Virus genome (UHGV): UHGV-0138819
From: a virus
DNA length: 14,223 nucleotides
Direction: 5' to 3' (one strand)
The position numbers were made by a program, and so were the translations under genes. Shown here piece by piece: positions 2,550 to 13,627 of this stretch. Under the pieces are notes generated by a model. The model was not told where the DNA came from. It did not search any database and worked only from the letters and a program-made list of their open reading frames with translations. Each line of letters opens with the position of its first letter. Position 1 is the stretch's first letter.

Positions 2550-2759
2550 TCATTTTTCGTTTTCAGAAGAGTTAAACGTCTTAGAATAGGGGCAGGATTG
2601 AGAGCGAGTCATCAGGGTAAACAGGTAAACGCTGTTTTCGTAAGTGCAAAGCCTCTTCCCGCCCTGCAACTCCTGTTCGTCGGGGTTGCTCATGGTGATT
2701 TTGCTTGCCGCAGCATTAAAAGCCAGCAACATACCGCAAATCAACAGAATACCTCTCAT
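2550..2759 (-). CDS. Hypothetical small secreted protein (69 aa) with N-terminal signal peptide
   Basis: Strong SD (AAGGGGGAGA) just upstream of the ATG on the minus strand. N-terminus MRGILLICGMLLAFNAAAS looks like a signal peptide. Convergent with the 2110-2541 gene. Confidence 0.5.
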   Translation of the reverse strand: MRGILLICGMLLAFNAAASKITMSNPDEQELQGGKRLCTYENSVYLFTLMTRSQSCPYSKTFNSSENEK

Positions 2760-2831
2760 ATCTCCCCCTTGAATGAACTGCCCTCTTCAATGCTAAATTG
2801 CATCCATCGTTCAACGATTATAGTAACAAAG

Positions 2832-2872
2832 TTGATCAATTTTACCGATCGATTTCGTAATTTCGATCGATT
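2832..2872. promoter_or_regulatory. Three GATC sites and two copies of CGATCGATT in the divergent intergenic region
   Basis: GATC at 2834-2837, 2847-2850 and 2865-2868. CGATCGATT at 2846-2854 and 2864-2872. Lies between the minus-strand gene start (2759) and the plus-strand gene start (~2928). Confidence 0.35.
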
Positions 2873-2927
2873 AAAATAATTAAAAATGTTAAGGCACATG
2901 TCGATGGTGTACTTAATCTATTCATCT

Positions 2928-3692
2928 ATGGAGGCTGTTTTGAAAAAGATTCTTGCATTACCTCTTATGTTCTTTTCCTTCTCGTCCTTCTCTGAAGGCG
3001 TTTCGTCTACAGATGTACAACCATACCCTGAGTACCTGGCGGCCTATGTAAAAACGTTGATTGCTGCTGGATGTGAAGAAACATTGAAAGGCGGTTCTGA
3101 GGACGTATTGATCAAACGGGCAACGGAGGGAATGAAGAAGGGCACGACGGGTTACGATAATGTACACAATGCTATCGTGTTGGGGGCTGGTTTCGGTAAT
3201 GGACTGAAGGAAAAAGGAAAACTTATCACAAAAGAAAAAATCGCGATTGATAGTTGTGGTGGTGCAGCGGCCTATACCATGATGCAAAAAGAATTTATAA
3301 AAACGGTCGTTGCTAGTATGACTAATCCGGAACAATCGCAGGTTGCCGATAGTAAACCCAAAGTGCCAGCTTCTGATGATGCAATTTACCGTACAAAAGC
3401 ACTAGCTCTGGCTGAACTTTATAAAGCTAACGAGGTTGCAGCCGATGACAAAATTGGTGGTCGTAAGGTGGAAGTAACCGGAACTGTACAGGACATAACA
3501 AAAAATTTCACGGATGATGTAGTTCTTAAACTTGAAAGCGGTAATCGCTTCATGCCAGTCAGTCTGAGTATGTCTGATTCAGAAAAGGCGAAAGCGTCGA
3601 AATTGGAAAAGGGCCAGAAGATCACCGTGACTTGCGAAAAGATGCAGTTTTTCATCGGTGCACCGTCTGGCGGAAACTGCACCTTTAACTAA
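2928..3692 (+). CDS. Hypothetical secreted protein (~255 aa) with signal peptide and a possible OB-fold-like C-terminal domain
   Basis: Long ORF ending TAA 3690-3692. N-terminus MEAVLKKILALPLMFFSFSSFSEG looks like a signal peptide. Start ambiguous: ATG 2886, 2898, 2928, or TTG 2940 preceded by GGAGG at 2930-2934. The OB-fold resemblance is my guess. Confidence 0.6.
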   Translation: MEAVLKKILALPLMFFSFSSFSEGVSSTDVQPYPEYLAAYVKTLIAAGCEETLKGGSEDVLIKRATEGMKKGTTGYDNVHNAIVLGAGFGNGLKEKGKLITKEKIAIDSCGGAAAYTMMQKEFIKTVVASMTNPEQSQVADSKPKVPASDDAIYRTKALALAELYKANEVAADDKIGGRKVEVTGTVQDITKNFTDDVVLKLESGNRFMPVSLSMSDSEKAKASKLEKGQKITVTCEKMQFFIGAPSGGNCTFN

Positions 3693-3706
3693 TCTGTCAT
3701 ACGGTC

Positions 3707-3727
3707 TGCCGGGTAAAATTCCCGGCA
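3707..3727 (+). other. Hairpin just downstream of the cargo CDS (7-bp stem TGCCGGG/CCCGGCA, 7-nt loop), no U-tract
   Basis: Inverted repeat seen directly. Not followed by a T-run, so terminator function is uncertain. Confidence 0.3.
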
Positions 3728-4986
3728 ACTCATCTACCCCACCTCATGGATGTCCCTGCTATTTGACGATCCAGCTTACATGCTCTTGCTGAAAATATCT
3801 TACGGCTCTCTGGGCCAGGTGCCTGACGTGACAGACGATCCCTCAATAATTTCTTATCTTCTTGCTGAAATATCGCAGAGCCGACAGGCCCAGTAACGTA
3901 TTTCACCACTTCATCCCGTAGAGCATCACAGCAGGGAAAACTTGCCGCAATAGGGCATTCTACTGTTCGTTTTCTGGTCTATTTAACATAATGGTTCTTA
4001 TAAGTACTTGACTGGAATGGTCAGGTATTACTTTTCGGAACGTTGACGCGAAGCTGGGTACACAACAGCGATTTCACCAACAGAAGGAAAGCATTCAGGA
4101 GGATTCGAGGTGAGTTCTCTTGTTCAAGGATTTTGGATGAGTTTGCCTGGTCACCACACAATTTCAGGTTTCAGACCTTTGAGGCTGCCAGTGTGTCAAA
4201 CGCCATAAAAGCACTTTTTTCTGTTTACCAGCAGACACAAAGCCACTACACCGACGTTACCACAACGGGCTGAAGGTCTGCCATCACCTGGTGATATTCA
4301 CGAGCCTGACCGCCACTGTTTCGTACCATTTCCCAAAACAATGTAAACAGCCAACCCACCAATCCCTTCTACGCTCCACCAGAAGCGCTACAGTGCGTTA
4401 TCCCCCCAGATGTAAACTGACGTACCGATAATCCACGACATCCCACAGCGCGATACAGGAACCACCAGAGGACATCTGTTTTAGTTTTAATGTGTCTTTT
4501 TTATTTTTTGTAAAAAGATGGTTCAGAAAGTGGGTTGTGTTTAGCACCCATTCAATTGGCGGATTCGCCTAGGCCGCGCCATTACTGGCTTCGCTGCATG
4601 CACCACACCATAACGCCCATAGGTACAAACTTGTGATTTGTACGTTTAGTGACCACTTTAGCATGATTAACTACGGATTATAGGCTATTTGAGGTGTATT
4701 TAATCTACTTTGTTCGCAGGATAGCCAATGATAAAGATCATCCACCAAATTTTCACAGAAAACTAGTATAGGGTTGCCAATCTTCAGCCAGCGCGGAGAA
4801 TGGTCGGTATTTTCAGATGAAAGCGGGGGAGGGAGATGATCAATTCTCGGAGCGGATCAGGTGCCTGGACCGCCTCAGGTGTTGCCGTCGATTGTGCCAT
4901 TGAAGCATGACGCGGACATATCAAACCAGAAGTTTTCATCGGTACGTTGGTCGCTTGGATGACTTGGAAAATTCTCACCCGGTGAT

Positions 4987-5075
4987 ACCTGCACGATTTT
5001 CGTGTACCCACCCCCTCGATTTTCGAGCACCTACCTGCACGATTTTCGAGTAGGGGGTAGTCGATTTTCGAGCAC
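4987..5075. repeat. Iteron-like array: four CGATTTTCG-centred repeats at 22-23 bp spacing, followed by an AT-rich tract; candidate replication origin or protein-binding array
   Basis: CGATTTTCG at 4994, 5017, 5040 and 5062. ACCTGCACGATTTTCG is exact at 4987-5002 and 5033-5048. CGATTTTCGAGCAC is exact at 5017-5030 and 5062-5075. AATAATAATAAATAACAAT follows at 5076-5094. Confidence 0.55.
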
Positions 5076-5649
5076 AATAATAATAAATAACAATCTCCAT
5101 AAAAGAACTGATAAGAAAAGTACCTCCAGGTCGAGAGCACGGAATGACGGTTGGTCATTCTGTTAGTTTTAATAGTGATGCTTCTGCATCGCTCCGCTCT
5201 GCAATGGCTGGTCAGCCACTTCAGATATGTTTGTGGTAAGAAGCTCACCTTTGCTGACGTGAAACAGCCGCGCCATCTCGTGACCTTCTAACCCTCGTTA
5301 ACACATCGCTACGCTCTGTGACTCGGGTAACCCGACAGGCTACGCCAGAGAGCTACGCTCTCACTCTGTGTGGAAGCTGCGAACTTGTTCGCCATATGTG
5401 GATCGGAGCACGGCGGAGAGGACTGCTTTGCATCTGTCCGGTTCACTCCGGGGCGGCGCGGGTTGTCTAACTGACTTCCTCAGCGCCTCTCTACGGCGTT
5501 TAAATGGTGTGGGTAACACGATGGTACTGCTATAACGACGAGTCCCCGCAGAACGCGTCACAGAACGATCTAGCACTATTGACAAAGATTTTTTAAACTT
5601 GTAATGTTATGGTGATTATTATGCATTATAAAATGCTACATGATAATGA

Positions 5650-5678
5650 TTGCTATTTACAAACAAATCTGATACAAT
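5650..5678 (+). promoter_or_regulatory. Candidate sigma70 promoter for the 5824-10406 operon (TTGCTA, 17-bp spacer, TACAAT)
   Basis: -35 TTGCTA at 5650-5655 and -10 TACAAT at 5673-5678 in an AT-rich region about 145 bp upstream of the first operon ATG. Confidence 0.4.
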
Positions 5679-5823
5679 AGATTTTAGTAGGGTAATGATT
5701 TACCTACGAATCCTCGAATAATTCTGCCGTCATCACGACATTCCTTGTCAACCTCACGGCAATACAAAATGGGTTACAAATAGAACCTCCGCGAATAATT
5801 CTTTTAACAGAACGGAGAACCCA

Positions 5824-6357: not shown

Positions 6358-6561
6358 ATGAACATCAAATTTCAACAGCACGTTTATCAGGCTCTACTAG
6401 CTGAGGCCAAAAGGCAGGACAAGCCCCTGGCACGGCTCTGTAATGAAATCTTGGAGACTGCCGCGAACATTTTCGACAACACACCAGACATCAAACCAGC
6501 ATTAGCCAGCAAGGCGACACTTTACGGAGAACAGAATGAGCAAACAGAACCGGGACAGTAA
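6358..6561 (+). CDS. Small putative ribbon-helix-helix (Arc/MetJ/CopG-like) DNA-binding protein (67 aa)
   Basis: AGGAGGA upstream of the ATG. N-terminal strand-like MNIKFQQ followed by two predicted helices (QALLAEAKRQ, PLARLCNEILETA). RHH assignment is by pattern only. Confidence 0.55.
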   Translation: MNIKFQQHVYQALLAEAKRQDKPLARLCNEILETAANIFDNTPDIKPALASKATLYGEQNEQTEPGQ

Positions 6562-7282
6562 GGATTTTGTAAAACTTGAATACAGCATTCTCGACCTTAC
6601 CGAGTACAACGGCCTGACCATTAATGGCAACATGAAAATTTTGCTATCTCTGGTTTACAGCTATGACAAAACAGGCAGAACTTATTACGAGTCTGTTGGC
6701 ATGATTGGTAAACGTTGCGGCTGCAAGCCCGAAGCCGTTCGTAATTTCAGGAACAAGCTTCGTGAAGCGGGAATGATCACTTTTGAGGAAGAGCAGGGGA
6801 GAACACACAAAATTTCTCCGGTCGAACTCGATCCATCGTTGATGGTTTTTCTTGACGATCATAATTCCACGCAGGTGAGTAATAGAAAAGTGGAAACCGA
6901 GGAGAGCGGTAAGAATGAGCAGAAACGTGATGTGGAATCTTTCGTGGTGGAACCTGCCGCGCCTGTTGCTGGAAAACCAGACGGCCTACCTGTTGTGGAT
7001 ATTCCTGTCGATGCTGATGTACCTGCCAATGATGATGCGGTGAACGCTTCTGATAGGTATACCGATGAACAATTAGGCACCAAGCTGAGGCGATGGCGCA
7101 ATTGGGGACTGGATGAAGAAGCAAAAGCGTTTTGTCTCTCTCATGGTATCAGCAGCGATGAGGACAGCATGAATCTGTTTATTCAAAATTATCATGTACC
7201 CGCACCGGAGTCAGTAGAACAACAGGTTAACGCCCCAGCAGATGAGCTGCCGCTTGATTATGATGACTCGATCCCTTTCTGA
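6536..7282 (+). CDS. Hypothetical protein (248 aa) with a putative winged-helix DNA-binding segment and acidic C-terminal region; candidate replication initiator or regulator
   Basis: GGAGA 5 nt upstream of the ATG. Overlaps the previous ORF by 26 nt. Segment YESVGMIGKRCGCKPEAVRNFRNKLREAGMI resembles wH/HTH domains. C-terminal half is D/E-rich. Confidence 0.55.
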   Translation: MSKQNRDSKDFVKLEYSILDLTEYNGLTINGNMKILLSLVYSYDKTGRTYYESVGMIGKRCGCKPEAVRNFRNKLREAGMITFEEEQGRTHKISPVELDPSLMVFLDDHNSTQVSNRKVETEESGKNEQKRDVESFVVEPAAPVAGKPDGLPVVDIPVDADVPANDDAVNASDRYTDEQLGTKLRRWRNWGLDEEAKAFCLSHGISSDEDSMNLFIQNYHVPAPESVEQQVNAPADELPLDYDDSIPF

Positions 7283-11049: not shown

Positions 11050-11412
11050 ATGGAGATACAACAAAATATGGCATTCGAACATGAAAGCAAAACCCCACAG
11101 GATGTATTGGTTTATACCGATAGCCCGATCTTTCATAAGCGCACCGTGATCTTTGATCTGGCTGCTGATGTGACTTGTGGTGATGTGATTAACCCGACCA
11201 CTGGCGCGGCATACGTTGCAGCCGATGCTGATAACTGTGCTGTAGCTCTGCAAAATCAAATCGCTGGTGATGCCCGTAGCCTGGTCATTTCAGACCGTGG
11301 CTGTGTGTTCAATCCATCTGGTCTGGTTGTAGCGGCTGCTGCAAAAGATGCTGCTTACGCTGCCCTTGTTAAGCAAGGCAACCGCATTGCTGACGCAAAC
11401 ACTGCAATCTAA
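11050..11412 (+). CDS. Putative phage head decoration-like protein (120 aa, or 114 aa from ATG 11068)
   Basis: Small Ala/Gly/Val/Asp-rich protein immediately upstream of a ~340-aa capsid-like ORF, the lambda D-E arrangement. Product call is inference from size, composition and gene order. GGAGA at 11052-11056 fits the 11068 start. Confidence 0.5.
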   Translation: MEIQQNMAFEHESKTPQDVLVYTDSPIFHKRTVIFDLAADVTCGDVINPTTGAAYVAADADNCAVALQNQIAGDARSLVISDRGCVFNPSGLVVAAAAKDAAYAALVKQGNRIADANTAI

Positions 11413-13556: not shown

Positions 13557-13627
13557 GACTCGGGGTGCCCTTCTTTGTGAAGGCTGAGAAATACCCGTAT
13601 TACCTGATCTGGATAATGCCAGCGTAG
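13557..13627 (+). repeat. attR: element-derived riboswitch-like 5' arm plus shared core; right copy of the 71-bp direct repeat
   Basis: Differs from 188-258 at three positions (TT for GC at 13575-13576, T for C at 13601). Canonical host sequence resumes after 13627 (GGAAGTCACGG...). Confidence 0.8.

Follow-up and report, generated by a model that had tools for sequence, protein, structure and literature searches.

The segment at 2835-2880 of the window (the whole stretch of DNA analysed here, 14,223 nt of the virus genome UHGV-0138819) is a candidate operator for the host LysR-type regulator OxyR, built to the design found at mom and agn43. Judged by its sequence, this reading is likely to be right, including the self-perpetuating ON/OFF switching of the cargo that it entails. 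By analogy with the known systems, the operator most likely represses through OxyR and is relieved by Dam methylation, and the island that carries it probably switches two secreted-protein genes on and off epigenetically. The host is E. coli, a species that carries both dam and oxyR.

The window is 100% identical to NZ_CP123310 (strain AREA_C483) and NZ_CP171637 (strain TC24), and the exact window allele is thus present in two complete E. coli genomes from different hosts. It contains an island of 13,369 bp (13.4 kb) that is located between rcnR and thiM in the E. coli chromosome. The features that define the island are as follows.

188-258 and 13557-13627: direct repeats of 71 nt, 96% identical, that bound the island and lie inside the thiM TPP riboswitch aptamer
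347-1702: tyrosine integrase
6536-7282: rep-like HTH protein
11050-11412: lambda gpD-like head-decoration ORF

The island also encodes a major-capsid-like protein and a 714-aa protein with weak tape-measure-like matches. Judged by these integrase, rep-like, tape-measure-like, gpD-like and capsid-like genes, the island is a phage-derived, satellite-like element. A DNA-level match to it was absent among the phage records of the collection. The integrase gene is located directly downstream of one copy of the TPP riboswitch. Both riboswitch copies are annotated as TPP in RefSeq, and Rfam at its gathering threshold reports the thiM-proximal copy only.

The candidate operator is situated between two divergent genes of the island. 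Its predicted half-sites were scored against the OxyR half-site consensus ATAGnTnnnAnCTAT.

2550-2759, minus strand: p69, a 69-aa secreted protein (phrog_4641), annotated in RefSeq, 74 nt from GATC-1
2834-2837: GATC-1, at the left end of predicted OxyR half-site A, overlapping the -35-like TTGATC
2835-2849: predicted OxyR half-site A, ATCAATTTTACCGAT, 7/10 to the consensus
2835-2880: whole predicted OxyR operator, dyad-symmetric about 2857/2858, from the consensus scan, conservation and the inverted repeat
2846-2854 and 2864-2872, plus strand: direct repeats CGATCGATT, exactly two copies, 18 bp apart
2847-2850: GATC-2, at the right end of predicted half-site A, 13 bp after GATC-1
2865-2868: GATC-3, at the start of predicted half-site B, 18 bp after GATC-2
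2866-2880: predicted OxyR half-site B, ATCGATTAAAATAAT, 7/10 to the consensus
2940-3692, plus strand, TTG start: OB-fold exported protein of 250 aa, annotated in RefSeq, 71 nt from GATC-3

An earlier sequence-only reading of this DNA had pointed to three Dam target sites within 35 bp, placed between two divergently transcribed genes for secreted proteins. Both points are borne out. The GATCs begin at 2834, 2847 and 2865, span 35 bp and lie inside the 180-bp spacer of the gene pair; both ORFs are in RefSeq, and both proteins have N-terminal Sec signal peptides that are typical by inspection (MRGILLICGMLLAFNAAAS in p69 and MKKILALPLMFFSFSSFS in the OB-fold protein). In NZ_CP123310 the three GATCs are at 1770084, 1770097 and 1770115. 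The same reading had described the GATCs as embedded in direct repeats, which is correct for GATC-2 and GATC-3 and not for GATC-1. The two copies of CGATCGATT are the GATC-2 and GATC-3 parts of the two predicted half-sites, and GATC-1 is found in TTGATCAAT instead. In addition, an imperfect inverted repeat of 29 nt (2824-2852 and 2863-2891, 72% complementary) is centred at 2857/2858. The window contains a second GATC triplet at 11127, 11148 and 11155 (11127-11158, 32 bp), in the coding region of the gpD-like ORF 11050-11412. The spacing of this triplet is 21/7, unlike the OxyR design.

The two flanking genes belong to little-characterized families. The p69 family comprises 821 protein clusters, all labelled 'hypothetical' and all from Enterobacterales, and the p69 protein itself is recorded on 476 contigs; searches of Pfam, NCBIfam and PADLOC with p69 gave no match. 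The OB-fold protein matches tRNA_anti-like as its sole Pfam family and PHROG 8545, 'superinfection exclusion Sie-like', and its database name is 'OB-fold putative lipoprotein'. Its AlphaFold model (pLDDT 72.6) has an N-terminal helical domain and a C-terminal OB fold. The only structure match of the OB fold is 3f1z, an uncharacterised 'putative nucleic acid-binding lipoprotein' from Klebsiella. Nothing was found for the OB-fold protein in NCBIfam, PADLOC or a PDB sequence search, and a single-sequence search of viral contigs returned no relatives. An envelope or phage-exclusion role for this protein would be a guess from the PHROG label.

The scores and geometry of the half-sites agree with binding by OxyR. 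When the half-sites are offset by 22 bp, 2835 is the top-scoring of ~28,000 window positions, with 14/20 (agn43 scores 14 and mom 13). At an offset of 31/32 bp, 2835-2880 is again the single best site in the window with 14/20 (7+7), and the reference scores are 14/20 (7+7) for mom and 16/20 (8+8) for agn43. A score of 7/10 per half-site is no worse than that of mom, and AT-rich DNA inflates such scores. The canonical centre-to-centre distance between half-sites for reduced OxyR is 32 bp (opvAB paper, PMC4856963). The predicted half-sites A and B are 31 bp apart, centre to centre, and thus at the spacing used by reduced OxyR (31 vs ~32 bp), and they overlap the GATCs. Two 15-bp half-sites at this distance fit a tetramer of reduced OxyR, and a dimer of dimers is consistent with the dyad symmetry about 2857/2858. 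A flanking candidate half-site at 2813-2827 has 5/10 by manual count, and the full-site scan at 2813 gives 12/20. Sequence collections were also scanned with the pattern GATCNNTNNNANCGATCGATN{10,13}GATCG, which already demands the GATCs. In 31 non-redundant family members, the positions downstream of GATC-3 that this pattern leaves free follow ATCGnTnnnAnCtAT, the second OxyR half-site. The pattern did not select for those positions, and their agreement thus counts as independent support for OxyR.

Pattern-based ascertainment is circular for the GATCs themselves, and for this reason a protein-led collection was chosen to follow their conservation. Loci were gathered from metagenome contigs by C-terminal peptide motifs of the OB-fold protein, and the DNA motif was not used. 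These loci are phylogenetically related; they are also the sole set free of GATC-pattern bias. Twenty-two full-length homologs of the OB-fold protein (53-99% amino acid identity) had enough upstream sequence, and in 17 of the 22 the 13/18 trio is exact and lies 51-72 nt before the start. The trio is partial or variant in 4/22 (one GATC mutated, or 14/18 spacing) and absent in 1/22, where the gene follows another gene. A divergent p69 homolog is present in all 22. More distant OB-fold homologs (at most 48% identity) have neither the trio nor p69. Among 20 unique intergenic sequences, GATC-1, GATC-2 and GATC-3 are intact in 18, 19 and 20, respectively. In the same 20 unique loci, the majority fraction is 0.987 for the 12 GATC columns vs 0.535 for the other intergenic columns, and none of 10,000 random sets of 12 columns reached 0.987. 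Conservation is 0.85 in the operator vs 0.46 in the remaining spacer; T6 and A10 of both half-sites are kept, and the n positions vary. In four metagenome contigs (L161, L162, L177 and L178) one GATC is mutated to GATT or TATC, or the 13-bp spacing is now 14. These may be naturally 'locked' alleles.

Candidate promoters overlap the operator on both strands. They were read by consensus from the sequence and the alignments.

2816-2821, minus strand: perfect -10 TATAAT, putatively for p69, 12 nt from GATC-1, without a good -35
2832-2861, plus strand: rightward promoter in the operator, also kept in relatives, with -35 TTGATC (2832-2837), an 18-bp spacer and the -10 at 2856-2861
2849-2877, plus strand: putative alternative rightward promoter, with TCGATT (2849-2854), a 17-bp spacer and TAAAAT (2872-2877)
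2876-2904, minus strand: second leftward promoter-like site, with -35 TCGACA (2904-2899), a 17-bp spacer and -10 AATTAT (2881-2876), 9/12 matches

The -10 at 2856-2861 is TATAAT-like (TAnnnT) in 18/20 relatives and CGTAAT in the window allele, which amounts to loss of the -12T and -11A. The embedded rightward promoter may therefore be weak or relocated in this allele. The TATAAT of the family at this position would place the transcription start near GATC-3. The TAAAAT of the alternative promoter, which is also inside the operator, corresponds to TAAAGT in the closest relatives. On the other strand, the p69 -10 is conserved as GATTATAGTAAC in one subfamily, and its -35 region would fall on GATC-1/GATC-2. 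The second leftward -10 overlaps half-site B, as the -10-like TAGAAT does in agn43 (TAGAAT was read from the sequence and not taken from the literature); transcription from this site would read through the operator. A protein bound on 2835-2880 would be expected to obstruct all four candidate promoters.

The locus probably adds a member to the agn43/mom type of OxyR/Dam switches, and not to the gtr/opvAB or pap type. Repression of agn43 is exerted from one OxyR site, to which OxyR no longer binds once the GATCs are methylated, and mom is likewise under Dam and OxyR control (PMC2909390). In Mu mom, the GATCs at 660, 678 and 691 of L150 are spaced 18/13, and 75 nt separate the last GATC from the com ATG. 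On its minus strand, the window likewise has GATCs spaced 18/13 towards the gene, at 2865, 2847 and 2834, and 74 nt separate the last one from the p69 ATG. Thus p69 occupies the side and the distance from the operator that com occupies at Mu mom, in the same orientation to the nearest gene. The two sequences have the 14-mer AAATCGATCGGTAA in common and equal OxyR consensus scores (14/20), and both are on mobile elements with the operator ahead of an accessory gene. They differ in that the mom operator precedes a weak promoter dependent on the phage activator C, whereas the window has a -10 only 12 nt from the trio and more promoter-like sites inside it. The downstream genes also differ (com/mom vs small secreted proteins), and the window has a further gene, divergent from the first, across the operator. 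When the phage collection was searched by blastn, the only relevant phage match was the upstream region of SfMu mom, with an E-value of 7, which is not significant.

The GATCs in the leader of E. coli K-12 agn43 (flu) are spaced 19/13. When the window is aligned with six related E. coli loci and the reverse-complemented agn43, the invariant positions are GATC..T...A.CGATCGAT....T.AT.T.GATCG.T, and the relative L008 (13/19 spacing) barely differs from agn43 in the core. Like agn43, the window has three GATCs in one OxyR repressor site (predicted in the window) with half-sites 31-32 bp apart, is part of a horizontally acquired island, and has an exported or surface protein putatively under the control of the site; a candidate leftward -10 that overlaps half-site B is a further likeness. 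In contrast to the 18/13 of the window, agn43 has 19/13 spacing and a higher consensus score (16/20), and a single gene with a long leader takes the place of two divergent genes ~70 nt to either side. Its gene product is unrelated to those of the window.

The resemblance to other Dam-dependent systems is more limited. A 13-bp GATC pair brackets an OxyR half-site in gtr (PMC2909390), and by sequence comparison the same pair is found around an OxyR half-site in agn43 and mom. In Salmonella gtr (of P22 and the chromosome) and opvAB, GATCs lie in OxyR half-sites and 13-bp GATC pairs bracket a half-site; like the window locus, these systems are on phages or islands, where they control surface or phage-resistance functions (PMC2909390, PMC4856963). 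They differ in having four GATCs and three or four half-sites, with alternative OxyR positions as activator or repressor. The site in the window has three GATCs only, and the layout with 3-4 half-sites and two GATC pairs is not found there. The sequence-only reading had likened the locus to Dam-dependent switches of the pap and agn43 kind. The comparison with agn43 holds in spacing, alignment, OxyR score and conservation; that with pap, which also is Dam-dependent and has GATCs in a divergent regulatory region, goes no further. In the pap system, ~102 bp separate two GATC boxes that lie in Lrp sites, and PapI and PapB are part of the system as well. In the spacer studied here the GATCs are 13 and 18 bp apart only, with no ~102-bp pair, and no match to a PapI/PapB-like family was found among the window ORFs searched. 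A pap-type Lrp/Dam switch was therefore rejected.

In the mechanism that we propose by analogy, OxyR would bind the unmethylated DNA, hide the three GATCs from Dam and occlude the overlapping divergent promoters, which would be the OFF state. When Dam methylates first after replication, OxyR could not bind and the promoters would be free, which would be the ON state. Each state would perpetuate itself through replication and result in heritable phase variation. GATC-1 and GATC-2 would bracket half-site A, and GATC-3 would open half-site B. The controlled genes would be the OB-fold 'Sie-like' gene on the right and probably also p69 on the left. By this analogy, we are quite confident that 2835-2880 would function as a methylation-sensitive OxyR operator for the promoter or promoters next to it, and we give the heritable phase variation that it may produce somewhat better than an even chance. 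Two things lower the estimate for phase variation: the closest match is mom, which is not known to phase-vary, and the embedded -10 is damaged in this allele.

The same operator could work without heritable ON/OFF states: expression would simply need Dam methylation or be tied transiently to replication and hemimethylation, which is the usual account of Mu mom. Its 18/13 spacing and start-codon distance (74 vs 75 nt) match mom and not agn43, and phase variation of mom expression is not known (PMC2909390). However, agn43 has an essentially identical operator and does phase-vary (PMC2909390). Moreover, Mu mom depends on the phage activator C as well, and neither a site nor a gene for C was noted in passing here; accessory genes in the integrated state are the setting of the bet-hedging agn43, gtr and opvAB. 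We regard an operator without phase variation as unlikely. It is improbable that the cassette is a decaying remnant, functional in its ancestors and inactivated here by the change of the embedded -10 from TATAAT to CGTAAT. The three GATCs, both half-sites and both flanking ORFs are intact, the alternative -10 TAAAAT (2872-2877) and the perfect leftward -10 (2821-2816) are present, and the identical allele in two complete genomes from different hosts and the p69 protein on 476 contigs also speak against decay. What decay would explain is the TAnnnT at 2856-2861 that is kept in 18/20 relatives and not in the window allele, and the loss of one GATC in the relatives L161, L162 and L178.

Another regulator, encoded by the island or the host, might recognise the palindromic TCGATCGA or the ATCGAT repeats, in which case the GATCs would be incidental. 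CGATCGAT is indeed palindromic, with two copies 18 bp apart, and small island proteins (85 aa and 143 aa) are encoded just upstream. We nevertheless consider such a regulator very improbable. The design is found on unrelated elements (Mu-like phages, flu islands and Enterobacterales islands), for two of which OxyR is the known binder; the conserved non-GATC positions T6, A10, C12, A14 and T15 fit the OxyR half-site consensus; and GATC-1 is outside CGATCGAT and yet conserved at exactly 13 bp. A functionless chance cluster of GATCs in AT-rich intergenic DNA was assessed with first-order Markov simulations of the window. GATC triplets within 35 bp occurred at a mean of 0.24 per simulated window, with P = 0.20 for at least one, and the window itself contains the second triplet at 11127-11158. 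Because simulated windows contain at least one triplet 20% of the time, the density of the cluster is weak evidence; the bare cluster is mildly unusual. Its architecture and conservation exceed chance. The exact 13/18 spacing is expected 0.004 times per window, and the trio persists among loci in which column identity of the flanks has fallen to about 50%, which contradicts a chance origin. A chance cluster is thus extremely improbable and was rejected, the density being unremarkable and the architecture and conservation not.

The preferred reading, an OxyR/Dam operator of the mom/agn43 design, is consistent with the distribution of the pattern. With one genome per species, the pattern matched 90 loci. 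About one third of these are in Enterobacterales, in AT-rich intergenic DNA; the remaining species-level matches are in GC-rich or HIP1-type genomes and look like chance. The IMG/VR viral contigs contained 50 matching loci. For the matches in AT-rich context (n=79), the genes on the half-site A side were classed into families. These are Mu-like com/mom (~16 viral contigs), flu, p69 (11 loci with 37-78% amino acid identity, in Escherichia, Dryocola, Franconibacter, Siccibacter, Pectobacterium and Symbiopectobacterium), and others that include a membrane-protein family, UmuD-like proteins, an EAL-like protein and a lipoprotein. Genes across the operator from these include some for OB-fold proteins, family-25 glycosyltransferases and two secreted families, one of 80 aa and one of 225 aa. 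The presence of the design beside unrelated accessory genes across Enterobacterales elements points to a host factor rather than an element-specific one, and a repressor site specific to one element is unlikely for the same reason. The three-GATC design is also found directly upstream of accessory genes in a set of viral and genome contigs (L101, L112, L114, L116, L130; L098, L102; L111, L113, L120, L132). The accessory genes of this set are UmuD-like, family-25 glycosyltransferase-like or of a small lipoprotein family (MKKIITLV..GCSTT), and are further candidates for OxyR/Dam control.

Comparison with related islands suggests that the operator moves together with parts of its neighbours. Two nested segments can be delineated.

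2807-2956: portable regulatory core, ~80% identical to islands that bear a different right-hand gene
2709-3980: swapped-in cargo cassette, absent from the otherwise collinear islands L239 and L003

The cargo cassette contains the p69 signal-peptide codons, the operator, the OB-fold gene and 0.29 kb downstream. Its absence from collinear islands indicates that it is swappable and agrees with the view of the sequence-only reading that these genes are cargo. The regulatory cassette recombines at junctions (2709-2759 and 2940-2956) that lie within the signal-peptide codons of p69 and of the right-hand gene alike. What is exchanged is the mature part of each of the two proteins; the promoter, 5'UTR and signal-peptide start stay together. 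The trio is missing beside the p69 homologs of L003 and L239 and beside those that a protein search returned from 8 viral contigs (L151-L158). It is therefore not an obligatory part of the p69 gene, and the operator is a cassette rather than something intrinsic to p69. Near yhaC in two E. coli genomes (NZ_CP116176 and NZ_CP098211), the p69/trio module is on an island with an extra fliC flagellin, which also carries a 'phase-1 flagellin repressor' and a recombinase. By its gene content, this island therefore has a candidate epigenetic switch and a flagellar phase-variation cassette together.

We tentatively suggest that the ~150-bp core at 2807-2956 is a portable, recombining epigenetic cassette placed ahead of unrelated secreted or envelope genes on Enterobacterales mobile elements, and that it may limit Sie-like expression to a subpopulation; taken as a whole, this possibility is doubtful. 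The cassette would consist of the operator, the divergent promoters and the first signal-peptide codons, and its carriers would be Mu-like phages, satellite-like islands and genomic islands. If this is true, every gene borne by the cassette would receive ready-made OxyR/Dam bet-hedging control. Sie-like expression in part of the population would then balance protection of the host against the element's need for an incoming helper phage.

Accessory genes of many unrelated kinds seem to have one and the same three-GATC operator design ahead of them, and this design appears to be mobile as a cassette. To our knowledge, the experimentally established OxyR/Dam switches are few, namely agn43, mom, gtr and opvAB. 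A 2026 review names only agn43 and gtr as OxyR examples (PMC13076061). Our literature search found no paper describing this locus or the p69/OB-fold module. The window locus and its dozens of relatives suggest that the mom/agn43 three-GATC operator is a widespread module of Enterobacterales mobile elements, where it precedes genes for small secreted proteins, lipoproteins, membrane proteins, glycosyltransferases and UmuD-like proteins. If these loci phase-vary, the cells of a clonal population would differ in much of their accessory-gene expression from prophages, satellites and islands. This would have a bearing on phage resistance, on surface antigenicity and on the interpretation of bulk transcriptomes and methylomes. 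GATC-N9-GATCGAT-N11/12-GATCG in AT-rich DNA could serve as a predictive signature for such loci.

Downstream of the OB-fold gene, 3693-5823 (core 3981-5823) is a 2.1-kb stretch without an annotated gene. An Rfam search of this ORF-free block gave no match. About 1.85 kb of it is kept at ~91% identity in 36 other E. coli chromosomes, where it is also unannotated. Substitutions in 3981-5823 relative to L239 have no 3-base periodicity, and the block thus does not look protein-coding. A GATC cluster of the replication-origin or iteron type was considered for the trio and rejected: it is cargo genes that the trio accompanies, not rep genes, and the iteron-like repeats of the island are elsewhere, at 4986-5075. 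There, four direct repeats at 4993, 5016, 5039 and 5061, spaced 22-23 bp, have the consensus wCGATTTTCGAGyAs. The part of the ORF-free block that contains them is its most conserved (~97%) and precedes the rep-like HTH gene (6536-7282); the repeats are probably the replication origin of the island.
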